Shown: positions 19,701 to 64,000 of the stretch, in pieces
Layout: every line of letters begins with the position of its first letter
Position numbering within the stretch: the stretch's first letter is position 1
Source of the DNA: Blastocatellia bacterium
Lineage (GTDB): Bacteria > Acidobacteriota > Blastocatellia > UBA7656
Assembly: GCA_963765495.1 (NCBI GenBank)
Contig: CAVXWP010000002.1
Span: 541,476 to 605,475 of the forward strand
DNA: 64,000 bases
Direction of reading: 5' to 3'
Program-made: the position numbers and the translations under genes
Notes under the pieces: generated by a model
Database searches by the model: none
What the model was told of the DNA's origin: nothing
The model's input: the letters and a program-made list of their open reading frames with translations, nothing else

Positions 19701-20354
19701 AAAGTTACCTCAATTGCTTTTTCCCTGAATTGCAATATTACCACATTTACCTTCTGAGAGTCTTATTTTGATGATCAGCACGATATACTGCGAGGGCCTG
19801 CTCTGAAAATAAAAGGGGTGCTAAATGTTGATAACGAGTAGATGAAGACAAACAACTCCGAGCCTGTGCGATATTACTTCTGCACAGCTTCATCAAACTG
19901 GTTGTCGGTAGGGCATTGGTTAATAAGCATGAGTCTGCTCTACGTGCTCAAAGGCAACAATTCGGGGTACCAGAAATATGCCCAGGTCAAACTGCTATAC
20001 AGGCTCGAAGCACCAAGGACCGTTCGACCTTCATACCGACATACAAAATTCTATCATGGCTCTCACACATTTTCATCATTCGAAGGTGAGCCGCAGGCTC
20101 ATGATGAACTAACGAGGAGATAACCGGCCCGCTGTGGCCCCCGATGCCATTGAGAAGGTGGCAAGCGCGTCCGGTTGATGGACCTGTTAGGCGCATCTCA
20201 TCTTGCAGGTTCAATAGAGATGGCCCTGTCCATATGCAAAGCCGCGCCAACAGATCGCCTCCTCTTAAGCATGATTTAAGGAGTAGCGCGGCGGACTGAT
20301 TGTAACACGATAGCTGGCAGACAGGTTCTGTTTGCAATGTGGTTGACAACCAGT

Positions 20355-20572
20355 CAGCGATTCCCGGTTAGACCGGAATTGAAGCGAACAAAGGAGATTA
20401 GAAATCGTGAAATTGCGTTGTAATTAAGGCAATCACAGCACTTAGCGCAAAACACCGATTACATCTATCCGATTTTGCTATAACTGTTGGTACAACAGAA
20501 TTTACTTTCGCAATTATCTTTTTCGCTTCCTCTTTTGATTTCATCAACTTACAACCTGACCGGGAATTGCTG
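20355..20572. mobile_element. 218-bp MITE in a family A cassette
   Basis: IRs cagcgattcccggttag / ctgaccgggaattgctg; 9-bp target duplication acaaccagt (20346-20354, 20573-20581). Confidence 0.85.
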
Positions 20573-20784
20573 ACAACCAGTGTGCCTCATTTTCACGGAT
20601 GGCTTTCCTGTGCGCTTAACGACGGAGATAACCGGCGCGCTGTGGTCTCCGCGTCATCTGAGCAGGTGGAATGCGCGTCCGGTTCATGGACCAGTTAGGC
20701 GCGCTCCGCTTTGTCGGTTCAATTCTGCACATTCTTTGAGCAGGCCGCGCTAGGAGTTCGTTGCTTTTCACCAATCGGTTTTCG

Positions 20785-20877
20785 AGTAATGGCTCAGTTA
20801 TGCGGGGAGGAAACAGCGTAAATCCTTTATTTGCAATGAGGGCATCTCAGCTTTCCCCGCGTAACTGACCGATTACA
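20785..20877. mobile_element. 93-bp mini-MITE
   Basis: IRs agtaatggctcagttatgcgggga / tccccgcgtaactgaccgattaca; flanking ttttcg duplication; absent from homologous cassette at 55785. Confidence 0.75.
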
Positions 20878-21416
20878 TTTTCGAGTTGCGAGGCGGAATG
20901 ATTCTACCAGCAATGCTTGTAGACAGGTACTCCTTGCTTCGTCTTTGGCGATCAGTGTGGTTCGTTTTCTTGGACCACTTCCTGCGCGCTTAACGCCGGG
21001 GATCAGCGGCCCGCTGTGGGCAAAGGGATAATGAGGCGGTGGCACGCGGGTCCGCTGAATGCCACGGTTAGGCGCGTTCTGATTTGTAAGTTCGTCACAG
21101 ATGAAGATTCCTGTCGTTCAAGCCGCGCAAGCTTACTTTACCTTTTAGCGGGACTTTGACTCTACCCTTTCGACTAGCGCGGCGAAGTGTGAGTCTAACT
21201 CGACAGACGTAGACAGGTCATTCTACCCTGCAATCTGACGACCAGTGTGAGTCTAACAGCACAGCTTGTAGACAGATAATATTGGCTGCGATCTTGGCGA
21301 CCAGTTTGGTTAATTCTCACCGACCAATTTCCTGCGCGCTTAACGCCGAGTTCAGCGGCGCGCCGGTAGCTGGTGGAACACAAAACGTTGGCACGCGCGT
21401 CCGCTGGAATGAGCAG

Positions 21417-21809
21417 TTAGGCTTGGTCCAATATTTTGACATCATATGCAAGTATATTACTGTCCACAGTTACCAGAGTCATATCCTTTTCCAATGCCTG
21501 GCATATCAAGATTCTATCAAACGGATCACGATGAATCATTGGGAGGGTGGCCAGTCTTGCTACACTCCCTTCCTTCAATGGCAGACTCTCAATCTTATGT
21601 TCGTCCCTTTGCTTTGGTATGTAACTGCCCGGAGGTTCAGGCAATGGCAGCTTCCCTATTTGATACTTGATAATTATTTCCCATAATGAAACAACGCTCA
21701 AAAACACATCATTCTCAGGGCTACGGATGGCTTCCAGAAAGGAATCTGGAAGCCGAAAATCCCCAATGATGTACCAGAGGAAAATGTGTGTATCGAGAAG
21801 GAGTTTCAT
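21417..21809 (-). CDS. vapC: Cassette: VapC PIN toxin
   Basis: LLLDTHIFLW...SVVSLWEIIIK...HRDPFDRILICQA. Confidence 0.92.
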   Translation of the reverse strand: MKLLLDTHIFLWYIIGDFRLPDSFLEAIRSPENDVFLSVVSLWEIIIKYQIGKLPLPEPPGSYIPKQRDEHKIESLPLKEGSVARLATLPMIHRDPFDRILICQALEKDMTLVTVDSNILAYDVKILDQA

Positions 21810-22045
21810 CTATCTTCAAATTCTTTGATAATAGCCTCCGGCAGTGGGGCGTCGAAGTCATCAGGCACTATGAAATTCCCCGCAGCTAAAGCAAAAGGGC
21901 GAGGAGAACGAGAGGCTGAAATGATGGGTTTGATTTCAGCAACGGGCTTACCGGCCCTAATAATAATAATACTCTCGCCAGCCTCGACACGTTCGATATA
22001 GGTCAAGAGGTTGCGCTTCATTTCATCTATGGTAATTGGAAGCAT
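21806..22045 (-). CDS. Cassette: Phd/YefM family antitoxin
   Basis: EMKRNLLTYIERVEAGESIIIIRAGKPVAEIKP...VPDDFDAPLP. Confidence 0.9.
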   Translation of the reverse strand: MLPITIDEMKRNLLTYIERVEAGESIIIIRAGKPVAEIKPIISASRSPRPFALAAGNFIVPDDFDAPLPEAIIKEFEDR

Positions 22046-23836
22046 AGGACAATTATCAAGCAGGTTTCTCATAAAATCAAACAAGGGTATGCCGAGGTCG
22101 ATGCGGAGCCTAACACCGAGATAACCGGCCCGCTGTGGTCGGAGGGATAATGAATCGCTGGCACGCGGGTCCGGTTGATTGAGCGGTTAGGCGGTCCCTT
22201 GCCTGTTTCATTTCTTGCGCTTGGCTGACCCTGATCCTCCTATTTTCACTCTCACTTTCTGAGACAGCTTTTCCTGTCATTGCCAAGGAAGCAGCTTGAT
22301 GTGCAAGCTTTGTCCTTCCCATTCAGGCTTCTCTACCCCTTGCCTCAACAGGTGGTTGTGCTGCGAAGGTATCTTTTCGAGGCAGCATTTTCATTGAGCC
22401 AGAGTGAATAATCCTTTGGAAGAAACATCCTATGAAGGAACAAGAGAAGAGAGAAGCGAGCAGGTGGCTGTCCTGGCGATGACTCACCTGAGCATGTTTT
22501 TCCATCACTGTTTGGCGAGTCGTCTCCCTCTCAATCGGTGATCTGACGCCTAACGTCCTGGTTGAGCGGCCCGCTGTGGCATCCCCTTCATCTGAATAGT
22601 TGGCATGCGGGTCCGGTCGAACCGGTTGTTAGGCGCGTTCTGATTTGCAAGTGCGTCACAGATGATTGCATTGGTTCGAGCCGCGCCTGCTTTCTTTGCC
22701 TTACAGCTGTATTTTGGCTCACCCTTTTCGAGAAGCGCGGCGGAGTGTGAGGCTAACAGCTTGGCTCATAGACAGGTCTACTTCGCTGCAATCTGACGAG
22801 CGATGTGAGTTTAAAAGCATTGCTTGTAGGCAGATATTCTTCGTCGCATCCTTGGCAATCAATGCCTCTCTTTCTCACCGACCAACTCCCGGCGCGCTTA
22901 ACACCGAGTTCAGCGGCGCGCCGTGGCCTCCGCTTCAACTGAGTAGCTGGAATGCGCGTCCGCTGGAATGAGCAGTTAGGCGGCTCCTTTCGGGATTCAT
23001 TCATTTCCTTGGGCTTTCCTGACAGGCTTCTTCCATTTCTTATCTCCTGTTTCATCTCAGTTTCTCCTCTTGCGCGCAATTCATACCTTCTCCGCTGGGG
23101 CAGGTTTTCTTGTCGGGGAAACTGCTTGATGTGCCAAGTTCCTCCTTTCCAAACAGTCTTCTCTGGCTCTTTGCTCAACAGGTAATTGGCTGCCGGAGTA
23201 TCTTTGCGAGATAGGTTTATCTTTGAGCAAGCCTGAAAAGAGAGCATCAGAAGAAAGGAGTTCAGATAAGGGAGAGTTGAGAGAAACAAACAGAGTTGAA
23301 TCGGGTAAAAAGGAGCGAGAGGCGAGCAAGTAGCAGTCCTCACTATGTCTCACTCGATCATGTTTTCATATCATTGCTTGGTGAGTCGTATCGGTTGTGA
23401 GATTGACGCCTAACGCCGGAGATAACCGGCGCGCTGTGGCCCCCGATGCCATCCAGAAGGTGGTATGCGCGTCCGGTTGATCGACCAGTTAGGCGCGTTC
23501 TGATTCGCAAGTATGTCACAGATAATTGCCTTCGTAATAGCCGCGCTGGCCCACTTTGCCTTTTAGCGAGGCTTTGACCTATCCTATTAAAGAAGCGCGG
23601 CGAGGTGTGAGGCTGACTCGACAGACGAAGAGAGGTGATCGCTGGTTGCAATCTGAGGGCCAGTGAGAGTCAAACAGCACAGCTTGAAGGCAAGTATTGT
23701 CGGCTGCGATCTAAACGACCAGTGTGATTCACTCTCATCAACCAACCTCCTACGCGCTTAACGCCCCGGTTGACCGGACCGCTGTGGCCTCCCCTTCAAG
23801 CGAGTGGTTGGCTTGCGGGTCCGGTCGAACCGGTTG

Positions 23837-24253
23837 TTAGACGCCGCTTTCAGCCATCAACGCCTTGAACCCTGCTTGCTCAAAATCTTGATCGAATGTC
23901 AGTGCTTCTGTTACTCCAGCATCCTTCATCGCTATAAATGAGATGCAGTCTATCAATCCCCAATCTTTGTCTTCGTACTTCTTGTATAGATCAAATGCCC
24001 GCTCGAACAGTTCTGTCGTGAGCCGTACTATTTGTACTTCCTCAGAGTCCAAGAAATCTTCAATGACATCGATGGCCTCTTGTTTATAATTGCGCGCTAA
24101 TCCGTTCCCGATCTCAAGCAGCACCGCGTCCGTAACGAGCAATGGATTGTCCTCATATTTAGCGGCTAATTCCCCAGCCTTTGCATGGTATTGATCGCGC
24201 GGGTTGATTAAAGCGACGACGAAGAGCGTGTCAACGAAGATTCGGTTCGGCAC
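23837..24253 (-). CDS. vapC: Cassette: VapC PIN toxin
   Basis: IFVDTLFVVALINPRDQYH...WGLIDCISFIAM...ALTFDQDFEQAGF. Confidence 0.92.
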   Translation of the reverse strand: MPNRIFVDTLFVVALINPRDQYHAKAGELAAKYEDNPLLVTDAVLLEIGNGLARNYKQEAIDVIEDFLDSEEVQIVRLTTELFERAFDLYKKYEDKDWGLIDCISFIAMKDAGVTEALTFDQDFEQAGFKALMAESGV

Positions 24254-24458
24254 GTTTTTCTCCGCTCATATAGAGGTCAAAATTTGTAGAGAAGTCTTCT
24301 GGAGCATCTATCTTGATATTTCTCAGCTTTGACATGAAGCTCTGTTTCTGGTCTTGTTGCTTAGATTGAGTGAAGTCCTTCACCAGTTTATACAGTTCGT
24401 CCAAGTCCTGTTCACTGATCCGATCAATCTCAACTTGTATTAGCTCTTTCGTTGTCAT
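24231..24458 (-). CDS. Cassette: putative antitoxin
   Basis: 75 aa overlapping the vapC start; C-terminal IDAPEDFSTNFDLY. Confidence 0.75.
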   Translation of the reverse strand: MTTKELIQVEIDRISEQDLDELYKLVKDFTQSKQQDQKQSFMSKLRNIKIDAPEDFSTNFDLYMSGEKRAEPNLR

Positions 24459-24599
24459 ACGTTGCTCCCTTCACCAACATTATTAATCATCCGGGCAATC
24501 GAGGCAACTGCACCTCAGGCGTCTAACGCAGGCATCAGCGGCCCGCTAGCAGCAAAGGGATAATGAGGAGGTGGTTTGCGGGTCCGCTGGAATGAGCAG

Positions 24600-25547
24600 T
24601 TAGGCTCTCGCACCCTCAGACTCATCGATTTCTTTATTTTGGTTTCCTTCCCAACAGAGTGGGAGATCAAGATCATCAATAAGCGAGGGAGCATCAGGAT
24701 CACCTGTTCCTATGAATATCTTACTTGGCTCCCATTCAAGCAAAACCCTCGCTATCATTCTTGTTGCTTGTGTTCTAACACTTGGCTTTTTCCTGATTAA
24801 GACATGCTCATCATAATTACTACAAGTATAGTGCAGATGCTTCCCGCATCTATGTAAATGACCTTGATATATAGTCTCCCCTTTCAGGGAAATTAAAACT
24901 GCTATTGACGGGAAGGTAGGATTAACATAGATCGAACATTGAGAGTCACTTTCCCAAGATTCCTCTGTGAGCTTCTTTGCCATATTTTCATCAATTGTAT
25001 TGCTGAGGCTCGATGAACAAGTTGGGCAATAGTCTATATCTAGCGGTTCGCTTAGTGTAATGAGCTTAATACCTTTGCCAAGCCATTCCAATTCAGACAA
25101 TGCTCCATCAATCCATTGTTCGGGTGGTCCGCTTGCCACAAGATGGTAAACTCGCTCAAATTCGATCTTTTGATTCTGCCACTGAAGGATTAGCCTCATT
25201 GAGTGAATCTGTGAATGAGTACCATAGAGATTCAAGACAGCCAATATTTTGGGGCTAGGCTTCGCTGCTTCCTCAACGAATGCCTCCCAGGATTTCTTAA
25301 ACTCAAGGATACGGTCAGCGCCCAATTCAATATGATTACTTGTGTAAGCTCCTGGCCTATGATGGGCATCGTGGTCCTTAACGCAAAGCACAGCCAAATT
25401 AGGATCAACCGTATTTGATGCATCACCATCAATATGATGAATGTTTAGCCCGATCCCTCGTTGCTTACAAACACAACATGCATTCGCATTTCGTTTTAGC
25501 AAATGTTCTCTTTGTTTTGTAGTTGGATCAACTCGTTTTCTAGACAT
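24600..25547 (-). CDS. Cassette: HNH endonuclease-domain protein
   Basis: CCVC...NIHHIDGDASNTVDPNLAVLCVKDHDAHH. Confidence 0.8.
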   Translation of the reverse strand: MSRKRVDPTTKQREHLLKRNANACCVCKQRGIGLNIHHIDGDASNTVDPNLAVLCVKDHDAHHRPGAYTSNHIELGADRILEFKKSWEAFVEEAAKPSPKILAVLNLYGTHSQIHSMRLILQWQNQKIEFERVYHLVASGPPEQWIDGALSELEWLGKGIKLITLSEPLDIDYCPTCSSSLSNTIDENMAKKLTEESWESDSQCSIYVNPTFPSIAVLISLKGETIYQGHLHRCGKHLHYTCSNYDEHVLIRKKPSVRTQATRMIARVLLEWEPSKIFIGTGDPDAPSLIDDLDLPLCWEGNQNKEIDESEGARA

Positions 25548-25925
25548 ACTTCTGAAAACTTGCGACTCCTTTGGAATTGAGCCCAACGGCCCAATTGATG
25601 TGCGAACGAGCAATTATTGTACGTAGAATAGGCGAGATAATCCATCGTACATGGTCACGTGGGGTTGAAAAAATAAATTTGCTTTGGATTATGCTTACCA
25701 GTGTTTGCGATGTTTCAGCGTGAGCCTAACGCCGAGTTCAGCGGCGCGCTGTGGGCTTCGATGCAAGCGAACAGTTGGCACGCGCGTCCGCTGGAATGAG
25801 CAGTTAGGCCGAATACATCAAATAGCCTGAGAGGCCCTTCTTCGCTAGGTTCAAGAAGTTCAACGAGGGTCACAGCATTACATCTAGCATAGACGACCGC
25901 ACTCCTAATCTTACGGACATTGCTT

Positions 25926-26783
25926 TTAAGCTTCGATGCCCGAGTGTTTTAATAATCCTCGATGAATGCGGTCATGCCGCTTATTCGATAATTCAATGTA
26001 TTTTTCCAACCCATTTAGGCCAATTATGTCGATCCGATAGGATGATCGAGTGTACGATCTGGACTTAAAATGAAACTTCATTGGAGCCATCTCGATTTCA
26101 GCTATATCTATTTCTCCTTGTTCACTCAAATCTGCTGCCAGAAGGATACCATCCAGAATAACAATTGGCTTTACAAAAACTAAGTATGGTGGATTGCTGA
26201 ATACATCTATTACCTTCTCTACCCCTTCCAATTTGGGCCAAGACTCTGCCTTAAGAGCATGCTCGGCAGCCTTACAAACGGATACACATGCCGAATACCA
26301 TTGCGAGGGGCTATTAGGATTCTTAAAGCTCTCGTGAATCCCATACCCATTCCATTTCAATTGCGAGATCAGTGATTCTGAAGTCATATAATCATAAAGA
26401 ATGCGCGGATCAAAAGGTAAATTGTCATAAAACGTCAAATTGTTCCATGCATCACCAGTTCGTAATGGCGTATCGGACAGATCCTCCCTGAAGATTACCT
26501 AAGGTTTCTCGGATTTCTTGACCTCTGCAACTATGTGATACCAACTTTGGATAAGCTTCTTATCATCAAGCTTGTGCATTAACATTCTGTGTGCTTGCAA
26601 ATCACATTCTCTCGTCTTCTGTTCATCTTTATCAAAGTAATTGAGGGTTCCTGAACAAGACCATTCTTTGGCAAGAAAGGTTCTTATTACTCTCATTTCA
26701 GAACCAAATCCAGATTTTTCCAAGTCTTTAATCACACTTTGTTTAAAGGCATTGTTCATAAAACCCATTCTACCAGTATCCAT
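25926..26783 (-). pseudogene. Cassette: hypothetical (PD-(D/E)XK-like) protein with in-frame TAG at 26499-26501
   Basis: ORFs 26499-26783 and 25926-26438 are in the same frame; LEKSGFGSE...RECDLQA...AEVKKSEKP*VIF, where the stop is probably a former TGG. Confidence 0.7.
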
Positions 26784-26886
26784 TTGAATCGTTTAGGCCT
26801 AACACCGAATTCAGCGGCGCGCTGTGGCTCACGATGCAATCGAGGGGGTGGCAAGCGCGTCCGCTGGAATGAGCAGTTAGGCTCAG

Positions 26887-27210
26887 TTAGGGGGCGAACA
26901 TCTCTGTTAATACTGTCAAAACATCTGATTCTATTTTCCTGTTAACCTTCCCTAATTTTCTTACGAGTCTTACTTTGTCAACAGTCCGAATCTGATCCAA
27001 TACGATTTGGCCTTTTTTGCCTTGGAATGTCAAAGCAACTCTCGTTGGGTAGCTTCTTCCTTTCGTTGTCATTGGAGCCACAATCACAGTGTTAATATGT
27101 CTATTCATTTCATCAGGGGAAATGATTAAACAAGGCCGTGTCTTCTTAATCTCACTGCCAATTGTAGGATCAAGATTGATGAGATAGACTTCAAATCTCC
27201 TGACTACCAT
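26887..27210 (-). CDS. mazF: Cassette: MazF/PemK toxin
   Basis: NLDPTIGSEIKKTRPCLIISPDEMN...VIVAPMT...LDQIRTVDKVRL. Confidence 0.93.
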   Translation of the reverse strand: MVVRRFEVYLINLDPTIGSEIKKTRPCLIISPDEMNRHINTVIVAPMTTKGRSYPTRVALTFQGKKGQIVLDQIRTVDKVRLVRKLGKVNRKIESDVLTVLTEMFAP

Positions 27211-27458
27211 TGCCACTCTTCTTCATCCCATTTAGTTGAGTTAGGAAAATAGTCATCAACAGATGAATCATCCTGATTTTCAGTCATAGTTTGAAAGGCT
27301 TGATCCCAAACATGCCTGGGATGCTGAGCAGATCGAATAATAATTTGATTGTCGAGTGCCTCAAGGTCAACCTCATCAGTAATGTTACTCTGTTCCAAGA
27401 GTAACTTTGGGATGCGAATACCTTGGGAATTACCAATTTTTATAATACGAGATTTCAT
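27204..27458 (-). CDS. mazE: Cassette: AbrB/MazE antitoxin
   Basis: IIKIGNSQGIRIPKLLLEQ...WDEEEWQW. Confidence 0.92.
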   Translation of the reverse strand: MKSRIIKIGNSQGIRIPKLLLEQSNITDEVDLEALDNQIIIRSAQHPRHVWDQAFQTMTENQDDSSVDDYFPNSTKWDEEEWQW

Positions 27459-27647
27459 AAGCACAATGTAATTACGAAGAGGCCAATAAGTCAAGTAAGA
27501 AAAGCAAGCGAGTTCCAGTAGACAAGTGCGAGCCTAACGCCGAGTTCAGCGGCGCGCTGTGGTTGGAGGGATAATGAAACATTGGTATGCGCGTCCGCTG
27601 GAATGAGCAGTTAGGCCGGTTTGCAAGGCTCATTTGTTGTATCGCTA

Positions 27648-28076
27648 TCAAAGTGCAAAAGGATTGGTTATCTTTAGCCGATTCTCTATTATCATTCCTC
27701 CACTCATATCTTCTGTGTACAGCATCTCTGCTGCTCCCAACAGCGCACTTGAAACGATGAGGCTGTCCCAAAAAGAAAACTGCAACTTCTCCCGTAGCTC
27801 TGAACCCTTCAACAATATGCTTCTGTCCATAACAACGACATCGTATTTATTATAGAAAGAGATGATGAGTGGTTGAAGACGTTGTTCATCGAATTGAGCT
27901 TTCTTGATGAGGTTGACACATATCTCATTAATGACTTGAGTGCTGACGATTATGTCGTTTTGTTGAATTATTGTTTTTGCAATAACTGATTTGTTCAGGT
28001 CTTGACCAGGAATAAAAGCATATAGCCAAATATTGGTATCAATAAAACATAAGGGTGTAGGACTAAGGTTGCTCAT
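27648..28076 (-). CDS. Cassette: PIN-domain toxin
   Basis: FIDTNIWLYA...STQVINEICVNL...SFWDSLIVSSAL...LYTEDM...ITNPF. Confidence 0.9.
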   Translation of the reverse strand: MSNLSPTPLCFIDTNIWLYAFIPGQDLNKSVIAKTIIQQNDIIVSTQVINEICVNLIKKAQFDEQRLQPLIISFYNKYDVVVMDRSILLKGSELREKLQFSFWDSLIVSSALLGAAEMLYTEDMSGGMIIENRLKITNPFAL

Positions 28077-28275
28077 AAATCTCTTCTCTCGCAAGAGGGC
28101 TGAATCCTTCAATGTTGAGGGGGTGAGCTAGAAGGTGTTCGATCATATCAAAATTTTCAGAGTTGTCTTCTGTAAGAAGAATGACCCGCACAACACCTTT
28201 GAACCTATCCCTGTGTTCTTCAGGAATAGTGATATTTCCGTCTCTTACTCTCGTTTGAAACTCAATTGCATTCAT
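28063..28275 (-). CDS. Cassette: putative antitoxin
   Basis: 70 aa MNAIEFQTRVRDGNITIPEE...AREEIYE overlapping the PIN gene. Confidence 0.75.
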   Translation of the reverse strand: MNAIEFQTRVRDGNITIPEEHRDRFKGVVRVILLTEDNSENFDMIEHLLAHPLNIEGFSPLAREEIYEQP

Positions 28276-54832: not shown

Positions 54833-57347
54833 GCATCAACTCCCGTTGTCGATGGCTCCTCTGCGTCTAACGACGGAGATAACCGGCGCGCTGTGGGCCT
54901 CGATGCAAATGAGTAGATGGCATGCGCGTCCGGTTGATGGACCAGTTAGGCGCATTCCACCTTGAAGGTTCGGTAAAGATGCCACTGCCCATCTGGCAAG
55001 GCGCGCCAGGAAATCGCATCCTCACAATCAACATTCATCGAAAGGCGCGGCGGACTGATTGTGTCAGCATTGCTTGTATGCAGGCACTCTTCGTTGCACC
55101 CTATGTGATCAGTGTGGCTCATCCTAACGAACAACTTCCCAGCGCGCTTAACGCCGGAGATAACCGGCCCGCTGTGGGCTCAGGGATAATGAAGGGTTGG
55201 AATGCGGGTCCGGTTGATGGACCAGTTAGGCGCATTCCACCTTGTAGGTTCAATAGAGTTACTCGTTCCCCTCTGCCAAGGCGCGCCCAGTGTTGATTTG
55301 CTTTTCAATCAGCAAATATAGGAGGGCGCGGCGGACTGATTGTGTCAGCACTGTTGGCAGGCAATTAGTCTGATTGCTTCATAGACGAGTAGTATGCCTC
55401 TTTTTCACGGATGGCTTTCCTGTGCGCTTAACGCCGGGGATCAGCGGCCCGCGGTGGGTAGAGGGATAATGAATCGGTGGTAGGCGGGTCCGCTGAATCC
55501 CCCTGTTAGGCGCGTCCCATCTTGTCGGTTCAATTCTGCATATTCTTCGAGCAAGCCGCGCACATATATCGTTTCCAGATATCGAGCATACATCGGGTTG
55601 CGCGGCGGAGTGATTCTAACAGCATTGTTTGTAGACAGGTATTCTTCTCTGCATCTTTGGCGATCAATGTGGTAGGTTTTCTCGGACCGCTTCCTGCGCG
55701 CTTAACGCAGGCATCAGCGGCCCGCTGGTAGCAGCGGGATAAAAGCACGGTGGCACGCGGGTCCGCTGAATGCCACAGTTAGGCGCGTTCAATCTTGTCG
55801 GTTCGATTCTGCATATATTCTTCGAGCAAGCCGCGCTAGGAGTTCGTTGCTTTTCACCGAGCAGCTTTCGAGTTGCGCGGCGGACTCCTTGTAAAAGGAT
55901 CGCTGGTAGACATGTATTCTTTGCTGCGTGATTGACGATCAGTGTGCCTCATTGTCACGGATCACTTCCTGCGCGCTTAACGACGGAGATAACCGGCCCG
56001 CTGTGGGCTCAGGGATAATGAAGGGTTGGAATGCGGGTCCGGTTGATGGACCAGTTAGGCGCATTCCACCTTGAAGGTTCGGTAAAGATACCACTGTCGA
56101 AATGCCAAGCCGCGCCAACAGATAGCTTCGACTCAACCGGAATTTATCGGGTAGCGCGGCGCAGTGATTGTGTCAGTACACTTTGTAGACATGTAGTCTG
56201 ATTGCTTGGTTGACGATCAGTGTAGCTCATTATCACGGATCGCTTCCCTGTGCGCTTAACGACGAGATAACCGGCCCGCCGTGGGCAAAGGGATAACGAG
56301 AGGTTGGCATGCGGGTCCGGTTGATCGACCTGTTAGGCCCGCCTTTGTCTTTGGCCGCGCTCGGCGCTTATTTCGAGCAAATCAGTCTGCCTCGATTGGC
56401 GCGGCCCCAACCTTAACTCCTTGCTTGGTGTTTTGACCTTTTCGTCATCATGGTCTTGTTGTCCGAAATACCTTTGCATCCAATTCGTTGCTGTTGGTCA
56501 GGTACTTTCCCGCGAGCCTAACGCCGAGATAACCGGCGCGCTGTGGTCGGAGGGATAATGAGGCGTTGGAATGCGGGTCCGGTTGATGGACCAGTTAGGC
56601 GCATTCCACCTTGAAGGTTCGGTAAAGATACCACTGTCGAAATGCCAAGCCGCGCCAACAGATAGCTTCGACTCAACCGGGATTTATCGGGTAGCGCGGC
56701 GCAGTGATTGTGTCAGTACACTTTGTAGACATGTAGTCTGATTGCTTGGTTGACGATCAGTGTAGCTCATTATCACGGATCGCTTCCCTGTGCGCTTAAC
56801 GTCGGGGATCAGCGGCCCGCTGTGGGCAAAGGGATAATGAATAGCTGGCATGCGGGTCCGCTGTATCCCCCTGTTAGGCGTCACTCCTCGCTGTTTCATC
56901 TCTTCGCCTTTGCTCGTTTTCATCCTCCGATCCTCATCTTGTCTTCTCCCAACAGCTTCTTACTCATTGCTTGAAAGCTGATTCAATTGCCGATAGCTTC
57001 TTTCCCAACCAGGTCTGCCTTGGCCAATGATCATCAGGCAATCTCGATAGGACTGGGTCTGTGCCAGTAAGCCCAGAGAAGAGCATAGCTGAAGGCACTC
57101 GAATGGAGAAGTGTGAGTCTGATGAAGGCGAGAAGATTGATCGTCCCCGGCAGTGATTTCAAAGCAGGTCTTTTGGAATTGATAGCTGAGTCGTTTCCTC
57201 TCCACCGATCTTCTGACGCCTAACGCCCCGGTTGAACGGCCCGCTGTGGCCTCCCCTTCAAGCGAGTGGTTGGATTGCGGGTCCGGTCGAACCGGTTGTT
57301 AGACGGCGTCTTTTCCTGCGAGCATTCTTTGGTCTTTTGTTTTTCTC

Positions 57348-57713
57348 TCATTGCTCAAACCATTTTGCCTGCTCTTTCGGCGACCTCAAAATACCGAAGA
57401 GCGATTCTATAGACTGGTCAGTGAGTATTGTAAACCAAACTGACTTGAGCTCTATTGAGTGTACTTCTATTGTTTGTCCATCTGCTCCTTTCAACGATGA
57501 TAGAAGCTCATCAAACCCCTCAGTCCTCGATACGTCCCTCCCTTTGTTTATTGCTGCGCGCACAGAGCAGACGCGAGCAACGTCAGCGATGAGAAGTGGA
57601 CTTGTCTTGAAGTATCGGTATTCACCTTGTCTCTTAATCCTGTCAAGACAATCCAAGACAAGTGGGTCGCTTTGTTTAGATTCGAGAAGTTGTCTCAATC
57701 GGTCATCCATCAC
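57348..57713 (-). CDS. Cassette: hypothetical protein
   Basis: ORF fills the cassette. Confidence 0.65.
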   Translation of the reverse strand: MMDDRLRQLLESKQSDPLVLDCLDRIKRQGEYRYFKTSPLLIADVARVCSVRAAINKGRDVSRTEGFDELLSSLKGADGQTIEVHSIELKSVWFTILTDQSIESLFGILRSPKEQAKWFEQ

Positions 57714-58365
57714 TTGAAAGTCACCATGACGTCAGCTGTCTAACGCCGAGTTCAGCGGCGCGCCGGTAGCTGGTGGAACGCGAGTAGTTGGAAAGCGCGT
57801 CCGCTGGAATGAGCAGTTAGGCGGCTTCCTTCGCCGATTCATCCTTCTTGAGCTTTCCTGATCATAACCCTCCTATTCTTATCTCTCGTTTCTGCACAGT
57901 TTCTCTTCTTCCTCACAGGTCATTTCCTCTCTCGTGCGACAGGTGTTGCTCTCTTTCGTCGGGGAAGCTTTTTGATCTGCCTACTTCCTCTTTTCCAAAC
58001 TCGCCTCTCTGATGCTTGTCTCAACAGGCAATCGGCTGAACAGGCTTCTTCGCCAGACAGGTTTATATGAGCAATGCTGAAAGACTGCTTTGGGAGAAAG
58101 AAGTGTCAGATGAAGGAGCAGGGATGAGAGACACAGCAGAGTAGTATGGGGATAAAGAGGCAAGAGAATCGAGCAAGTAGGGGTCCTGGCGATGACTTGC
58201 CTGGACAGGTTTCAACAGCAAGGCAAACTGAGTCGTCTCCCTTTCGTCGGTGATCTGACGCCTAACGACGAGTTCAGCGGCGCGCCGGTAGCTGATGGAA
58301 CGCGAGCAGTTGGCATGCGCGTCCGCTGGAATGAGCAGTTAGGCTTGGCCCCTTGTCGATGCAAG

Positions 58366-59103
58366 TCATTTGCCCCGCGTCAAACCATAAAGTGAGAGAA
58401 GTCCAGCCGCAATTTCAGCACGAGTTTTATCTCTCAATCCTGTATCATCAGACTCCATACTTTCGAGTATCTGAACAGACATTCCAACAGCATTGATTCT
58501 TTCAAGGATGTTGACATAATCTCTAGCTTGTTCCATCGTGGACTTATAAATTAGCAAAAAAGTTGCTGCAATAAACTCTACAATTATTCCAGCTAAAGTG
58601 ACGACAATTGATGGTTGAAAATTATCAGGAGATTTATAGACTTGAATAGTTCCATAGCCAATAACGATGAAACCAGCAGTAATTACCAGTAGGCATCGAA
58701 AGAAAATCCAACGGATTTGAGCCAGATTCCGATTTAAGTAGATTTCGAGTTTGATTCTTGCAAGCTCCCAAGCTGCCTGTGGCTCATTTGGGTGTTCTCT
58801 AACACGTTCTTCTACTCTCTTTATCACTTCCTGGTGCTCGCTTGCAATTAGGACACGCTGATAGCCTGCAATTCCAATGATGAGCATTGCTCCAATAACA
58901 CCGAGGATTCCGGCCACTATATTCAAGAGTGGTTTTTGATTCGGAAGATTCTCTGCCACTATTGCACAAACTATGGCGAGGCCAATAGAAGAAGCGGCCA
59001 GGGTAAAAAGGAGGCGCAGTCTACGTCCGCCATGCACAATTGCGCCAAACAAGCCTTCTGCGACCCAAGACGAAATCTCAAGAATCATAGGTGTGGACCT
59101 CAT
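58366..59103 (-). CDS. Cassette: four-TM membrane protein, C-terminal half resembling TRADD-N-associated 2TM domains
   Basis: YLNRNLAQIRWIF...GIIVEFIAATFLLIYKSTMEQARDY; family call from memory. Confidence 0.65.
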   Translation of the reverse strand: MRSTPMILEISSWVAEGLFGAIVHGGRRLRLLFTLAASSIGLAIVCAIVAENLPNQKPLLNIVAGILGVIGAMLIIGIAGYQRVLIASEHQEVIKRVEERVREHPNEPQAAWELARIKLEIYLNRNLAQIRWIFFRCLLVITAGFIVIGYGTIQVYKSPDNFQPSIVVTLAGIIVEFIAATFLLIYKSTMEQARDYVNILERINAVGMSVQILESMESDDTGLRDKTRAEIAAGLLSLYGLTRGK

Positions 59104-59141
59104 TAACGCACAATTACGAGAAGATTAAGAGAAGAGTGCAG

Positions 59142-59170
59142 ATTCTATACGGAATCAAGCAGTTATTCAA
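59142..59170 (-). promoter_or_regulatory. Sigma70-like promoter in shared cassette leader
   Basis: TTGAAT-N17-TAGAAT. Confidence 0.65.
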
Positions 59171-62167
59171 TTTGAATCTATCCCGAATTTGAGAAAAATG
59201 AAATGTTTGTTGGTTTGTCCAAACCAAGAAATATCGGATTACCGAGCGAGCCTAACGACGAATTCAGCGGCGCGCTGGCGGCAAAGGGATAGTGAGAAGG
59301 TGGAATGCGCGTCCGCTGGAATGAGCAGTTAGGCGGCTTCCTTCGCCCCTCCATCCTCCTTCCTCTTGGCCGATCATTACCTCCCATTTCTCTTCTCCTC
59401 TTTCGCCTCTGTTTCTCCTCCTCCCTACTGTTATCCTCTCTTGCGTAATAGGGTTTCTTGCTTGTTGTCGCGGAAGGTTCCTGATCTCCCAGCTTGCCTT
59501 TCCCACACTCTTTTCTCTGCTGGTTGGCTCACCAAACCATTCAACTGCGAAGCTATCTTTGCCAGACAGGTCTATCTTTGAGCAAAGTTGAATAGTTGCT
59601 ATTGGAAAAGGAAATATCCAATAAAGGAGCAGAAATGATCGAATAAGCAGAGGTGCATCTGGTAAAGAGCAATGAGAAGCGAGCAAGTGGATGTCCTGGC
59701 GATGTCTTACCTAATATTGTTTTCGCCTCATTGCTTGGTAAGTCGTTTCGCTTCTGAGAGATTGACGCCTAACGCCGGGGATCAGCGGCCCGCTGTGGCC
59801 GAAGGGATAACGAGAAGCTGGTATGCGGGTCCGTTGAATGCCCATGTTAGGCGCGCCTTTGTCGTTGGCCGCGCTCGGCTTTCTGGGCAATTCAATCAAG
59901 GCATATCGGGAGGCGCGGCCCCAATCTTGACTCGCTGCTTTGTGACTGCGTCGTTTAGTTACTATGACATTGTTCACTCTTTTTTCCGCCTCTGTGTCGT
60001 TGCTGTTGGTCAGGAAATTTCCCCGCGAGCCTAACGCGGAGATAACCGGCGCGCTGTGGGCTCAGGGATAATGAAGGGTTGGAATGCGGGTCCGGTTGAT
60101 GGACCAGTTAGGCGCATTCCACCTTGAAGGTTCGGTAAAGATGCCTCTGTCGAAATGCCAAGCCGCGCCAGCAGATAGCTTCGACTCAACCAGGATTTAT
60201 CGGGTAGCGCGGCGCAGTGATTGTGTCAGTACACTTTGTAGACATGTAGTCTGATTGCTTGGTTGACGACCAGTATGCCTCATTGTCACGGATGGCTTTC
60301 CTGTGCGCTTAACGCCGGAGATAACCGGCGCGCTGTGGCCCCCGATGCCATCCAGAAGGTGGTATGCGCGTCCGGTTGATCGACCAGTTAGGCGCGTTCT
60401 GATTCGCAAGTATGTCACAGATAATTGCCTTCGTAATAGCCGCGCTGGCCCACTTTGCCTTTTAGCGAGGCTTTGACCTATCCTATTAAAGAAGCGCGGC
60501 GAGGTGTGAGGCTGACTCGACAGACGAAGAGAGGTGATCGCTGGTTGCAATCTGAGGGCCAGTGAGAGTCAAACAGCACAGCTTGAAGGCAAGTATTGTC
60601 GGCTGCGATCTAAACGACCAGTGTGATTCACTCTCATCAACCAACCTCCTACGCGCTTAACGCCGAGTTCAGCGGCGCGCTGTGGGCGAAGGGATAATGA
60701 ACAGTTGGCAAGCGCGTCCGCTGGAATGAGCAGTTAGGCGAGTGCTCTCCGTAATTCATCCTTCTTGCTTCTGCCATTTCCATCTTTGCGACTCATTGCC
60801 TCTGGTCGAAGTATTCTGGCGGGTAGAAGCTGGGCTTGCATTGAGAGCAGAGTGTTGTAGACGAGGCAATCGGGGGTTGGGTGATTGGATGCTTTGGTGC
60901 GTGGGTAGCAGATTGACAGGGGAGCAAGTGCATTGTCCTGGCGATGTCTCGCCTGCTCTTGATATTGCGGCTTTACCTGATGAGTCGTTTCAATTCAACG
61001 GATTCACTGACGCCTAACGTCCCGGTTGACCGGCCCGCTGTGGCCTCCACTTCATGCGAATAGTTGGATTGCGGGTCCGGTCGAACCGATGGTTAGGCGG
61101 CTCCCCTCGCTGTTTTACCTCTTCGCCTTCTCTCATTTTCATCTCTCTTTTCTATCCTCCTCTCCCATCTCCTTCTTTCTCCTTGCTTGCTGAGTGTCGA
61201 TTTGCAGAAACCATCCTTCCCTGACAGGTCTGCTTTGGCCATTTCTGCGCAGGCAATTTCGCTTGAAATGGCTCTGTGGAAAACAGCCCTGAGACTGAGA
61301 ATATCTGAAAGCAGAGATTTGATGAAGAATGATTCTGATGAGGAATTGCAGCGAGAAGTAGCATTGATAGGTGAACGGATCCATTCTCCTCGCGGTGTCT
61401 TTGCTGTCAGGTCTTTAAGCGATTGCTTGCCGAGTCGTTTCCATTTCACCGTTGTTCTGACGCCTAACGCCGGAGATAACCGGCGCGCTGTGGCCCCCGA
61501 TGCCATCCAGAAGGTGGTATGCGCGTCCGGTTGATCGACCAGTTAGGCGCGTTCTGATTCGCAAGTATGTCACAGATAATTGCCTTCGTAATAGCCGCGC
61601 TGGCCCACTTTGCCTTTTAGCGAGGCTTTGACCTATCCTATTAAAGAAGCGCGGCGGAGTGTGAGGCTGACTCGACAGACGAAGAAAGGTGATCGCTGGT
61701 TGCAATCCGAGGGCCAGTGAGAGTCAAACAGCACAATTTGTAGGCAGGTAATATTGGCTGCGTTCTTGACGGCCAATGTGATTGATTTCCATCGACCAAC
61801 TCCCAGCGCACTTAACGCCGGGGATCAGCGGCCCGCTGTGGCCGAAGGGATAACGAGAAGCTGGTATGCGGGTCCGTTGAATGCCCATGTTAGGCGCGCC
61901 TTTGTCGTTGGCCGCGCTCGGCTTTCTGGGCAATTCAATCAAGGCATATCGGGAGGCGCGGCCCCAATCTTGACTCGCTGCTTTGTGACTGCGTCGTTTA
62001 GTTACTATGACATTGTTCACTCTTTTTTCCGCCTCTGTGTCGTTGCTGTTGGTCAGGAAATTTCCCCGCGAGCCTAACGACGAGTTCAGCGGCGCGCCGG
62101 TAGCTGGTGGAACGCGAGCGGTTGGCACGCGCGTCCGCTGGAATGAGCAGTTAGGCTGAGTCCAGTT

Positions 62168-62410
62168 CTAAGTGCTTCCAAGTTCTCTTATTCTTTGTTT
62201 TTCTTCTTCTGCTTTTCGTTTGAAGTAAAGCGATAGCCATGAAGGGGCTTTATCAAGGTATAATGCAAACAATGTGACAACAGGCGTTGCGACAGATAGC
62301 ATCAAAAAACACGCAATAAATAAATCACGAGTCCGTAATCCGTATATTGATAAAAGAATTACACCCATGATCAAGAGAGATGCATTAAAGACGAAGCTAA
62401 TAATTTTCAT
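62168..62410 (-). CDS. Cassette: small two-TM membrane protein
   Basis: AAGGAG RBS; two hydrophobic segments and a charged tail. Confidence 0.7.
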   Translation of the reverse strand: MKIISFVFNASLLIMGVILLSIYGLRTRDLFIACFLMLSVATPVVTLFALYLDKAPSWLSLYFKRKAEEEKQRIRELGST

Positions 62411-63179
62411 AAAAGAAGTCTCCTTGAATGAGGTTAATGGAAAACGCAATAAGAATTCAAACGAAGAATGAGAATAGGAAGACCTTTAGGAAGATGTGAG
62501 ATTGAGTTAGGCAGACAAATTTGCCTGAGTAATCAATGGCGAGGGCTTTTGAGGTATTGCAAGCACAAAGGAAAAGAAAGGACTATCAGATTCAATAATC
62601 CAAGTCTTTCCGGGTGACCGAGTGAGCCTAACGACGAGTTCAGCGGCGCGCAGGTAGCTGCGGGATAATGAGAGGGTGGCATGCGCGTCCGCTGGAATGA
62701 GCAGTTAGGCGGCCTCTTAATTGTTTCATTTCCTTGAGCGTTGCTGACCTCCTTCTTCCAATACTCCTCTCCTGTTTCGGCGCAGTTCTCCTCTCTCTCT
62801 GTTGCTACCTTCTCCTGTGATAGGTCTTCCTGTTGTTGTCGGGAAAGTTTTTTGATGTGCTAAGTTCATCATTGCCAATCAGGTTTGTACTGCCACATTC
62901 CTCAACAAGCAATTGGGTGCGAATGTATCTTTGAGAGGCAGGATAATCTTTGAGAAGTGCTGAAATGTCAGCATCGGGAGAAAGCAGTATTGGGTAAAGA
63001 GGAAATAGAAGCGGGCAAGTAGCTGTCCTCACGATGACACGCATGAATCTGTTTTCGCATCATCGCTTTATGAACCGTCCCCCTTTCGTCGGTGATCTGA
63101 CGCCTAACGCCGAGTTCAGCGGCGCGCCGGTGGTAAAGGAAATCAGATTTTGGAAATGCGCGTCCGTTGGAATGAGCAG

Positions 63180-63570
63180 TTAGGCCGCAGCCAGCGCACT
63201 GACCATCACGTAATACCCATCAGGATCTCGGAGTGCGAATTCTCTGGTGCCAGTATTGGGGTTCATATGCGGGTTCCTCTTCCAGTTCAGCGACAAGGGC
63301 ACGTGCTCGATGCAGCGTCTCATCGAAGTCGTCCACACGAAAGAACAAGAGTAGTCCATTGCCAGGCTGAGCATGATCGGGACTGGTCAGTGGTGGATGT
63401 TCGTGGGCTCCCCACTGGTGAAGGCAAAGCAAGACTGTTGCATCGGTGTCTAGGATTTGCCCGAAGTCCTGATGAGCGGGATTGGTTTCCGGTTGTCCAA
63501 ACAGCGACTGATACCACTTGAAGCTTCGAGTAACATCAGCAACGCCTATGATTGTCCAGGTACGCTTCAT
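63180..63570 (-). pseudogene. Cassette: VOC/glyoxalase family protein with frameshift near 63270
   Basis: IIGVADVTRSFKWYQSLFG...GNGLLLFFRVDDFD...EEEP continues in another frame as HMNPNTGTREFALRDPDGYYV. Confidence 0.8.
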
Positions 63571-63619
63571 AGCTCCCTCCTGCGGCCAAACTGAGATTTA
63601 GTAGTCATAAAGAAAATTG

Positions 63620-63648
63620 ATTCTACGAAGAATCGGTTTGATATTCAA
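63620..63648 (-). promoter_or_regulatory. Sigma70-like promoter in shared cassette leader
   Basis: TTGAAT-N17-TAGAAT. Confidence 0.65.
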
Positions 63649-64000
63649 TTGAAGCGGCCAGAGTAATCTGGAAATGGAAATTCGAAGAGTCTCAGTTTTC
63701 TCCAAATCGAGAAGCAACGGGAGGTCGAGCGAGCCTAACGCCGGGAATCAGCGGCCCGCTGTGGGCGAAGGGATAACGAGACGCTGGTATGCGGGTCCGT
63801 TGAATGCCCATGTTAGGCGCGCCTTTGTCGTTGGCCGCGCTCGGCTTTCTGGGCAATTCAATCAAGGCATATCGGGAGGCGCGGCCCGAATCTTCGACTC
63901 GCCCCTTTGTGACTGCGTCGTTTAGTTACTATGACATTGTTCACTCTTTTTTCCGCCTCTGTGTCGTTGCTGTTGGTCAGGAAATTTCCCCGCGAGCCTA

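Follow-up and report, generated by a model that had tools for sequence, protein, structure and literature searches.

A conserved inverted repeat in a family of gene-less integron cassettes of a Blastocatellia bacterium: a candidate cis-acting stem-loop

The question raised by this locus is what a 7-bp inverted repeat, held at a nearly constant spacing within integron cassettes that contain no gene, could be doing there. In this study, the window, which is the whole 64,000-nt stretch of DNA analysed, came from an uncultured soil bacterium with a large chromosomal integron system of three intI genes and approximately 200 cassettes. The cassette array in the window (Table 1) continues up to the end of both window and contig, and its attC sites scored 75–99 bits against a model derived from the array itself. 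ORFs of the array cassettes lie on the minus strand of the window, which is the cassette sense (top) strand, the attC bottom strand being the plus strand; as seen on other contigs, intI lies to the right of the array in this orientation.

Searching the window for GCCGCGC-N{30,55}-GCGCGGC with exact arms revealed 29 copies of GCCGCGC-N38/48-GCGCGGC, located where the preliminary description had placed them, versus 0.00 expected; none of 100 shuffles reached 29. The motif is real and far above chance. Together with five copies having one mismatch and one disrupted copy, 35 ORF-less cassettes were obtained, the same number as counted previously, consisting of 21 A-short (2 with a MITE and 1 disrupted), 9 A-long, and 5 C cassettes, the fifth C being cut by the window end. 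Bodies were ~195, ~264, and ~180 nt long, respectively, and a stem-loop module of 52–62 bp was common to the three subfamilies. Roughly one in three cassettes of this large integron belongs to the family; the window array has 83 attC sites, and family members stand adjacent to one another in runs of up to seven (54951–56795).

Genome-wide, 69 copies were found (45 N38, 16 N48, and 8 N39), and all 69 were inside cassettes, beside attC, and in a single orientation relative to attC. The N38 pattern matched the genome 47 times and the reversed control pattern 0 times, and a model of A-short gave 43 matches in the host. Identical cassette copies occurred in several arrays; variant A1 had 8 identical copies on three contigs. 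The earlier view of a constant scaffold packaged in individually mobile gene-less cassettes was borne out, as the cassettes are attC-bounded and also occur beside attI. In two of the three integrons, an A-long cassette directly adjoined attI and A-long, A1, or C cassettes came next; the third integron had C cassettes at positions 3, 4, and 6 from attI. In two of the three, the family thus holds the attI-proximal positions, those most recently integrated; a useful function (e.g., a promoter) and selfish spread fit the attI-adjacent position equally well. The family has its own attC subtype: 28 of its 35 window members carried subtype II, 6 subtype III, 1 subtype IV, and none subtype I, versus 29 of 47 other cassettes with subtype I. 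Copy number, positions, and attC linkage of the motif are thereby established. The model search of related genomes that had been suggested was run and returned matches at chance level only, with no credible homologue outside the host genome, so that the family is private as far as searched. It appears to have multiplied recently to ~70 copies.

Table 1. Cassette array and bodies of the gene-less family in the window
Feature	Coordinates	Strand	Module (spacer) or remark
Integron cassette array	18332..64000	minus	83 attC sites of 84-87 nt
A-short body with 218-bp MITE	20192..20615	minus	20241-20292 (N38)
A-short body, ~97-nt palindromic insertion splits spacer, right arm GCGAGGC	20700..20989	minus	20744-20894
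A-long body	21073..21339	minus	21122-21183 (N48)
A-long body	22634..22897	minus	22680-22741 (N48)
A-long body	23494..23757	minus	23540-23601 (N48)
A-short body, variant A1	29673..29868	minus	29722-29773 (N38)
A-short body, A2	30680..30874	minus	30728-30779 (N38)
A-short body, A3, left arm GGCGCGC, stem +2 inner pairs	31384..31580	minus	31433-31485 (N39)
A-long body	31665..31928	minus	31711-31772 (N48)
A-long body	40412..40675	minus	40458-40519 (N48)
A-long body	42479..42742	minus	42525-42586 (N48)
A-short body	43348..43542	minus	43396-43447 (N38)
A-long body	44794..45057	minus	44840-44901 (N48)
A-short body	45141..45336	minus	45190-45241 (N38)
A-short body	45421..45615	minus	45469-45520 (N38)
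A-short body with 218-bp MITE	46149..46572	minus	46198-46249 (N38)
A-short body, A3, left arm GGCGCGC	46657..46853	minus	46706-46758 (N39)
A-short body	48910..49105	minus	48959-49010 (N38)
A-short body	49189..49384	minus	49238-49289 (N38)
A-short body	50566..50761	minus	50615-50666 (N38)
C body	51498..51677	minus	51514-51565 (N38)
A-short body, A3, left arm GGCGCGC	53680..53876	minus	53729-53781 (N39)
A-short body, A4, mosaic flanks (A1-like, A5-like), left arm GGCGCGC	54951..55147	minus	55000-55051 (N38)
A-short body, A3, left arm GGCGCGC	55231..55427	minus	55280-55332 (N39)
A-short body, A5	55511..55701	minus	55555-55606 (N38)
A-short body, A6	55784..55976	minus	55830-55881 (N38)
A-short body	56060..56255	minus	56109-56160 (N38)
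C body	56338..56517	minus	56354-56405 (N38)
A-short body	56600..56795	minus	56649-56700 (N38)
C body	59852..60030	minus	59868-59919 (N38)
A-short body	60113..60308	minus	60162-60213 (N38)
A-long body	60393..60656	minus	60439-60500 (N48)
A-long body	61548..61811	minus	61594-61655 (N48)
C body	61895..62073	minus	61911-61962 (N38)
C body, cut by window end	63818..64000	minus	63834-63885 (N38)

The spacers had been described as hypervariable in sequence and fixed in length. The fixed length was not upheld: besides 38 nt (21 of the 35 window cassettes) and 48 nt (9), 39 nt was present in 4 intact copies, and an A-long copy that has decayed, located on a different contig, had 45 nt. In the remaining window copy an insertion splits the spacer (137 nt) and the right arm is altered. 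Twenty of the 38-nt spacers had exact arms and one had the left arm GGCGCGC, which also accompanied all four of the 39-nt spacers. Exact-arm copies in the window had 13 distinct spacers, in agreement with the "about 13" estimated before. Hypervariability was not upheld, because the spacers aligned without gaps, with pairwise identity averaging 57% (52% for the 9 representatives <90% identical), and the A and C spacers were recognisably homologous as read from the alignments. Judged by these alignments, the spacers are diverged, alignable homologues. Comparison with phage, plasmid, and host sequences, as proposed earlier, showed no match in phage and plasmid collections and none of >16 nt elsewhere in the host genome.

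These data bear on the proposal that the cassettes encode small structured ncRNAs, each with a constant scaffold and a variable loop, which would work in trans (guide, decoy, or antitoxin). A conserved stem with a diverging loop agrees with it, as do several G-U-compatible pairs in the consensus fold on the plus strand, and a regulatory RNA named sRNA-Xcc1 is encoded by the Xanthomonas campestris integron. According to PMC8876359, some ORF-less cassettes of that integron give rise to regulatory RNA; the cassettes here are likewise ORF-less integron cassettes, but unlike that RNA they had no Rfam match, stable fold, or covariation. Rfam was searched at the gathering score over the whole window and at E ≤ 5 over 55100–62200. 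Whole-cassette folds were not more stable than shuffles (z −0.13, −1.16, +0.99, and +1.21), and the MFE fold of cassette C left the arms unused on either strand. Testing the aligned cassettes for covariation gave a consensus fold of −12.55 kcal/mol, to which covariation contributed −0.53 kcal/mol, and double changes in 3 of 27 pairs. The alignment fold scored z −3.7 and −3.6 on the two strands against column-shuffled alignments, and these equal values single out neither strand. Terminator-like sites were absent from the cassettes except for one at 55071–55086. With loops that are homologous rather than random and spacers that match no target, such an RNA library is unlikely.

The arms, which the preliminary description allowed might be no more conserved than their flanks, were 94–100% identical, versus 66–74% for the flanks. 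Our own count for the A-short alignment (13 sequences) put the invariant positions at 13 of 14 in the arms, 47 of 182 outside them, and 2 of 38 within the spacer. The arms had pairwise identities of 0.94/1.00, whereas the spacer had 0.57 and the flanks 0.68/0.74 (66/68% among the 9 representatives <90% identical). Were the module without function and the cassettes neutral, decaying passengers, the arms could look conserved because the copies share a recent ancestor, because gene conversion acts among them, or because the GC block mutates slowly. That many copies are identical or almost so, that mosaic members such as A4 exist, that insertions are tolerated, and that no homologue was found in outside genomes as an independent test would all suit such passengers. 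However, 13 of 14 arm positions are kept in representatives <90% identical, in which spacer and flanks have 52–68% identity, and our own arithmetic puts the chance of 13/14 at ~2e-7 given a background invariance of 47/182. Gene conversion would make the flanks uniform too, and A and C have the module in common but not their flanks, which are otherwise unrelated. Absence of function is consequently regarded as quite improbable.

The right arm was the same in 72 of 73 located copies, the disrupted copy being the exception, and the left arm had an uncompensated C-to-G change in 10 copies; no compensatory arm changes occurred in 69–73 copies. The covariation formerly seen in the pair just inside the arms dissolved into chance, as 5 to 7 of ~15 spacer types can pair there and ~6/16 would do so at random. 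Since the arms never covary, pairing is indistinguishable from sequence-specific recognition of two half-sites. The inverted GCCGCGC pair might accordingly be a double-stranded DNA target for a regulator or nucleoid protein acting as dimer or tetramer, and the cassettes would then serve as operators or promoters that govern transcription across the array or in the direction of intI. An invariant arm sequence lacking compensatory change is the pattern of such recognition, spacers of 38 and 48 nt are 10 bp apart (about one helical turn), and the family adjoins attI and intI in two of the three integrons. This phasing is broken by the 39-nt (8 copies) and 45-nt variants, and 45–55 bp between centres is an unusual distance for one protein. 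Promoter activity is known in gene-less cassettes of Vibrio and Treponema integrons (PMC11014356, PMC8876359). Unlike promoter cassettes, the A and C cassettes had no sigma-70-like promoter in a sequence scan of 54900–62200, where 5 such sites were found versus 5.7 expected, every one of them in a cassette outside the family. Promoters would not need up to seven adjacent family cassettes, and no neighbour gene conserved beside all three intI genes was found. Half-sites for a protein are therefore somewhat doubtful.

It was also suggested that the repeat is a hairpin akin to the inner stem of attC, that is, a second, attC-like site recognised by the integron integrase. Integron recombination is established to act on folded single strands. 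Like attC, the module is an imperfect palindrome with a GC-rich inner stem in the same array, presumably folding in the same single strand, and its GC core is similar to the attC L-box core (GGCGCGC ... GCGCG). Unlike attC, it has no flanking R''/R' boxes and no extrahelical bases as read from the alignments, and it lies inside bodies, no cassette boundary ever having been seen at a module. An attC covariance model (filters off, E ≤ 10) matched every one of the 83 attC sites and none of the 35 modules, leaving an attC-like role extremely unlikely.

Complete ORFs in the bodies reached at most 50 aa (A-short), 56 aa (A-long), and 32 aa (C). If the family descended from a decayed cassette for a small protein or from a gene 3′ end, the arms would be relics of Pro-Arg/Arg-Gly codons (CCG CGC, CGC GGC) at a fixed protein distance. 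Most copies have a Shine-Dalgarno-like run and an ATG at the minus-strand start, the variant at 54951 has a complete 58-aa ORF ending inside the attC R'' box, and in our reading N38 puts both arms in one frame. Yet this small minus-strand ORF is interrupted by stops and frameshifts in most variants and, again by our reading, the ATG is absent in 5 of 18 unique variants and differences between variants are mostly non-synonymous. No 3-base periodicity was detected in 5 segments (p 0.24–0.87), the open 67-aa frame had 0 relatives among 1.84 billion proteins at E ≤ 0.001, and a Pfam search at E ≤ 10 gave no match. Two related genomes gave weak A-short model matches (27.1 and 22.3 bits) within an S9 peptidase gene, at its 3′ end, but these are at chance level, as an unrelated long ORF contains an equally strong match (24.9 bits); tblastn with the S9 peptidase matched no cassette. 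A coding origin is already largely refuted and considered very improbable.

The literature searched agreed with the preliminary description that no integron element of this layout has been reported, gene-less integron cassettes themselves being well known as a class. Such cassettes, treated in PMC11014356 and PMC8876359 and also represented in the literature by PMC6557892, are presumed to influence the cassettes next to them or intI, and PMC11014356 gives their share as 6% to 49% of cassettes. The cassettes here resemble the gene-less and promoter cassettes of Vibrio and Treponema in being attC-bounded, devoid of a gene, and frequent in large chromosomal integrons. They differ in forming one multi-copy paralogous family, about a third of all cassettes, in which a 7-bp inverted repeat is invariant and its spacing fixed, and their bodies of 180–265 nt are much shorter than the 335–515 nt of non-attC sequence in the Vibrio gene-less set. 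Similarity to REP-like repeats and MITEs is seen in the short, multi-copy module with terminal inverted repeats on unrelated backbones (A and C). Unlike those, all 69 copies are in integron cassettes in a single orientation and, by our reading, have no target-site duplications. A true MITE of the host genome differs from the module in occurring on three contigs, inside and outside the array, with a 9-bp duplication.

The preliminary description was partly confirmed in what it observed and partly supported in how it interpreted this, and the conserved motif probably works in cis as a hairpin of DNA or RNA rather than as a guide library. As isolated single-stranded DNA, modules had their arms paired in 6 of 6 folds, and the A3 module folds at −16 kcal/mol (z −3.27). 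Among lineages with a left-arm mismatch, A3 gains 2 and A4 gains 1 inner base pairs as read from the alignments, and copies whose spacer is split or shortened have a mutated right arm as well. In a 363-nt single-stranded context, the MFE fold lacked the canonical left attC. Observations against a cis-acting hairpin include the MITE and another insertion tolerated within some copies, the uncompensated left-arm change in 10 copies, and whole-cassette folds no better than shuffles.

On sequence comparison, we tentatively favour a family of non-coding cassettes that is private to the lineage, was amplified recently, and has a candidate stem-loop acting in cis. Selection would keep the GC stem as a cis-acting element, which may form a hairpin either between two attC hairpins when the recombinogenic strand (window plus strand) is single-stranded or in the cassette transcript; the loop would be diverging homologous sequence, its length held by descent and fold. 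We tentatively read the cassettes as self-amplifying or regulatory "empty" cassettes. If, as we infer, the stem pairs in vivo and acts in cis, it may help cassette excision and reinsertion or affect transcription through the cassettes.

The integron cassette array of the window was searched with a covariance model (R1) for attC, the recombination sites that bound the cassettes; 35 sites of the array itself served to build the model. A total of 83 attC sites were found in the window, with scores of 75–99 bits, all on the plus strand. Genes on the minus strand of the cassettes include a PIN/Phd pair, an NhaA antiporter and IS transposases. Reading of the attC model placed the extrahelical T and G on the 3′ arm of the plus strand, and on other contigs arrays of the same kind end at the attI region (the array head), followed by a divergent integrase gene (intI) on the plus side. 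The strand of the genes, the extrahelical bases and the side of intI thus identify the minus strand as the cassette sense strand and the plus strand as the recombinogenic bottom strand. Positions of the features are listed in the table.

The genome (G000) is a soil metagenome assembly of 7.3 Mb in 17 contigs. Reads of the one DNA sequencing run yielded short contigs with joints at repeats, which are uninformative on mobility. Three intI genes, scoring 475–487 bits and above the TIGR02249 cut-off, were found on other contigs; two of them are 88% identical, and the third shares 63–65% identity with both. Arrays with the same cassettes as those of the window abut all three genes, and the window has no intI because its array runs off the contig end. 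When the neighbourhoods of the three genes were compared for a conserved gene, only the integrases matched. A pattern search gave 202 inter-attC segments in the genome. At its distal border the window array is preceded by group II intron pieces that resemble two introns, of which one may be nested or truncated.

Features of the cassette array, with two loci elsewhere
Feature	Position	Strand	Remarks
Integron cassette array	window, ~18332 to right end		cassette genes on minus strand
Group II intron domains (Rfam)	window, 13158-13270, 16703-16803, 17799-17875		distal array border, outside array
RT/maturase/HNH ORF	window, 15024-16700
RT/maturase/HNH ORF	window, 16764-17795		N-terminally short
IS4-type DDE transposase gene	window, 32063-33487	+	inside long "cassette" of array
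IS4-type DDE transposase gene	window, 35108-36250	-	inside long "cassette" of array
218-bp MITE	window, 20355-20572		inside A-short cassette 20192
218-bp MITE	window, 46312-46529		inside A-short cassette 46149
Palindromic insertion, ~97 nt	window, 20784-20878		splits spacer of cassette 20700
A-short variant A4	window, 54951-55147	-	58-aa ORF
Second gene-less repeat set, examples	window, 22192-22549, 22981-23409, 29234-29590, 30957-31299, 42825-43263, 43625-44005, 45700-46065		343-440 nt, no hairpin module
Decayed A-short-like orphan	G000 contig 13, 158415-158607		left arm gone
Locus L248	genome G030, 1697-3074		3′ of S9 peptidase gene

The motif of two 7-bp arms around a spacer, GCCGCGC-N-GCGCGGC, which had been described from 35 gene-less cassettes, proved to be real, with 29 exact matches in the window versus 0 expected. 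The number 35 is reached when one left-arm mismatch is allowed and one disrupted copy is counted. These cassettes fall into three subfamilies, 21 A-short (~195 nt; two carry the MITE and one a spacer insertion), 9 A-long (264–267 nt) and 5 C (~180 nt). Spacer lengths of 38, 48 and 39 nt were counted in 21, 9 and 4 copies, respectively. The whole genome contains 69 copies (45 N38, 16 N48 and 8 N39), all beside an attC and in a single orientation, and a few decayed copies in addition. Spacer length is not strictly constant, as 38, 39 and 48 nt all occur and one decayed copy, in which an arm is mutated as well, has 45 nt; the A-long spacer corresponds to the A-short spacer plus a 10-nt block. Each of the 34 complete family bodies is delimited precisely by two attC sites. 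With attC sites (R″/R′ boxes, a paired L stem and extrahelical bases) on both sides, intI and attI at the array head, and a body that keeps a fixed orientation to its own attC and is inherited together with it, these elements are organized as integron gene cassettes.

Several single elements were observed beside the regular copies. The insertion in cassette 20700 is unique; its two ends are GTTATGC...GCGTAAC, with attC R boxes in reverse order, and outside the attC sites it alone was matched by the attC model (10.9 bits, E = 2). The MITE is bounded by terminal inverted repeats (CAGCGATTCCCGGT / ACCGGGAATTGCTG) with a target duplication of 9 bp, and three further copies with 99% identity are located on contigs 14 and 16, outside integrons. 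The orphan on contig 13 (37.7 bits) lies outside any array and adjoins an IS3-type transposase frame.

In an alignment of 13 sequences, 13 of the 14 arm positions were invariant, compared with 2 of 38 in the spacer and 47 of 182 elsewhere. Pairwise identities were 0.94 and 1.00 for the two arms, 0.57 for the spacer and 0.68 and 0.74 for the flanks. The arms are the best-conserved part of the cassettes, not merely as conserved as their flanks, and these data show that selection acts on the two arms. That the module is without function is decidedly improbable. The spacers had been called hypervariable, which is too strong, as they align without gaps, share common words and still allow the homology between A and C to be recognized; judged by their identity of 0.57 next to the most conserved arms, they are the fastest-drifting part. 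Covariation of the base pair just inside the arms, also claimed previously, was at chance level as read from about 15 spacer types.

Since the arms never covary, pairing of the arms and recognition of their sequence are inseparable in these data. Pairing is favoured by three observations: all of 6 isolated modules folded with the arms paired, the two lineages with a left-arm mismatch each have one or two extra inner pairs, and damage to the spacer is accompanied by damage to an arm of the same copy. Recognition is favoured by the absolute invariance of the arm sequence and by the 10-bp step from 38 to 48, and on the same two points the module might be a protein-binding operator or a promoter cassette, which we regard as rather unlikely. 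A sigma-70 scan of 54900–62200 placed none of its 5 sites in A or C cassettes and, like a terminator scan, was at chance level; according to a statement in PMC11014356, promoters of gene-less cassettes cannot be identified in silico. Our tentative preference is for a cis-acting stem-loop carried by self-amplifying or regulatory empty cassettes. The stem-loop would form either on the single-stranded bottom strand, flanked by two attC hairpins, or in the transcript.

The preliminary description had suggested a library of structured noncoding RNAs, for which fold stability, covariation and Rfam gave no support. Whole-cassette folds on both strands were no better than those of shuffled sequences (z = -0.13, -1.16, +0.99 and +1.21). 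The consensus fold was weak (-12.55 kcal/mol, with a covariation term of -0.53 kcal/mol), and double changes were present in only 3 of 27 consensus pairs. One of the three is the attC-adjacent terminal pair CGCR...YGCG, which, in our reading, only makes the R-box stem longer in the attC belonging to the cassette when this is circular. The advantage of the consensus fold over column shuffles was equal on both strands, as palindromic features alone would give. Rfam returned 3 matches in the window, all to group II introns outside the array, and none in 55100–62200 at E ≤ 5; a tRNA and tmRNA scan found none. A trans-acting structured RNA is thus decidedly unlikely, with no Rfam match, no fold better than shuffles and almost no covariation.

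By the definition stated in PMC11014356, a cassette is ORF-less if it has no ORF longer than 210 bp. The longest complete ORFs were 50 aa in 18 A-short, 56 aa in 8 A-long and 32 aa in 6 C cassettes, all within this definition. A small ORF on the minus strand was considered and rejected, as its frames are broken in most variants and the variability has no 3-base period. One long open frame had no relative in 1.84 billion proteins and no Pfam match. Reading an in-frame TGA as selenocysteine was dropped because other variants carry TAA, TAG or stops elsewhere. With broken frames, no periodicity and neither a protein relative nor a Pfam match, a relic of coding sequence is very improbable. Only variant A4 has a complete ORF (58 aa), which opens with an ATG close to the beginning of the cassette and closes with a TAA inside the R″ box of attC; its relatives have a frameshift or stop at the same place, and we read this ORF as due to chance.

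Other readings of the module fared no better. A hairpin akin to the attC inner stem had been considered, and the attC model detected none of the 35 modules (E ≤ 10, filters off); a second, attC-like site is hardly credible. The idea of a guide library was left without targets in the genome, phages or plasmids: the masked genome contained no match longer than 16 nt to any of the 21 distinct spacers, and a search of 54900–62200 against phage and plasmid collections gave no match at E ≤ 0.01. An invertible segment was rejected, as none of the 69 copies is inverted and the best identity of any oriented spacer to the reverse complement of another, 0.53, reflects its own partial palindrome. A MITE or REP-like repeat was likewise rejected, as all 69 copies lie beside an attC and spacer searches returned only cassette copies.

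Outside G000, BLAST with the A-short variant A1 gave no match in any of 57 other genomes of the order. The exact N38 pattern occurred 47 times in G000 versus 0 for the reversed control, and among 400 other genomes of the phylum its counts equalled those of the control, with none enriched like G000; the unpublished genomes G208 and G081 are included in this tally only. Two other genomes of the phylum, G357 and G171, carry a different repeat in which these 7-base arms enclose a conserved ...TCGCTTGGCCGC... core; with 9 pattern matches versus 1 in the control for G357, this repeat shares no sequence relationship with the cassette module. Searching a genome contig collection with the arms and 4 conserved spacer bases yielded at least 119 single matches in unrelated GC-rich genomes. 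The arms plus flank gave 68 single matches in a metagenome contig collection, none of which matched the A-short nhmmer profile at E ≤ 1e-3; for these 68 and 29 chance loci from the N38 tally, the best score with the A-short model was 13.4 bits. We regard the single matches in both collections as chance.

An A-short covariance model run on 58 genomes of the order, G000 included, found 43 copies in G000 and four weak matches (19–27 bits) outside it, none near an attC. All are located within ordinary coding genes, namely an S9 peptidase gene (in both G033 and G030), a 970-aa ORF (G028) and a GC-rich stretch (G007). Shuffles that keep the arms rarely reach these scores, which is also true of the match in the unrelated ORF. 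We judge all four to be chance matches, and the E-values of the model are clearly too optimistic here. Descent of the module from a fragment of this S9 peptidase gene, in which Pro-Arg and Arg-Gly codons would have formed the arms, was considered; tblastn of the peptidase in G000 gave distant paralogues only and no cassette. This origin is disfavoured by the equal match in an unrelated ORF, the shuffle control, the tblastn result and the protein search. In these searches, no credible relative of the family was found outside G000. At locus L248, ORFs of 138 and 115 aa flank one of 149 aa; the two are similar and both end with ...EFLRTRR, and this may be a duplicated antitoxin-like gene pair.

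The attC sites were of four subtypes, distinguished by the L-arm word, an observation that concerns the window array and contigs 3, 6 and 17 of the genome. Counting the site on the left side of each copy, 28 of the 35 family cassettes in the window have subtype II, 6 have III, 1 has IV and none has I, and 29 of the 47 other cassettes have subtype I. Subtype I occurs almost only with gene-bearing cassettes, and II and III with gene-less families. An attC subtype of its own accompanies the family. Identical family copies are present in several arrays. The attI-adjacent cassette is A-long in 2 of the 3 integrons, followed by A-long, A1 or C, and in the third integron C cassettes occupy positions 3, 4 and 6. 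The first positions of an array hold the latest integrations. As the attI-proximal places are the newest, family cassettes are now, or were recently, the most active integrase substrates.

A further account regards these ORF-less cassettes as parasites of the integron itself, with no "function" other than to amplify themselves. The invariant hairpin and dedicated attC subtype would then form a cis device making them unusually good substrates for the integrase, or the hairpin at the first position would drive transcription toward intI and raise recombination. We consider this account possible but rather improbable. A second set of gene-less repeats, which has no hairpin module, is about as abundant as the family. 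Its clusters have 35 and 9 copies genome-wide, some with attC subtype II, and among 8 cassettes read, all 7 copies of the set had stops in all three minus-strand frames. Repeated noncoding cassettes of both sets together make up more than half of the array, a share in the upper range quoted for Vibrio in PMC11014356.

Integron cassettes without a gene have been described before; some of them act as promoters or encode RNA (PMC11014356; PMC8876359). The preliminary description knew of no integron element with the present layout, and a full-text search of the literature, covering main texts, likewise found no multi-copy family with an invariant internal inverted repeat and its own attC subtype. 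The more exotic interpretations of the preliminary description were not supported.

This family of very short noncoding cassettes accounts for about a third of some 200 cassettes. The usual picture of a large chromosomal integron is a library of adaptive genes, in which the gene-less cassettes are little understood; to our knowledge, promoter activity is the only role tested for such cassettes. If the family is neutral, it still illustrates cleanly the extent to which noncoding repeats can fill an integron. If the parasitic account is true, a selfish layer would occupy a third or more of an array regarded as a store of adaptive genes. If the hairpin helps recombination in cis, or regulates the array or the integrase, it would offer a concrete, mutable handle on how cassettes compete for amplification and on what gene-less cassettes do.
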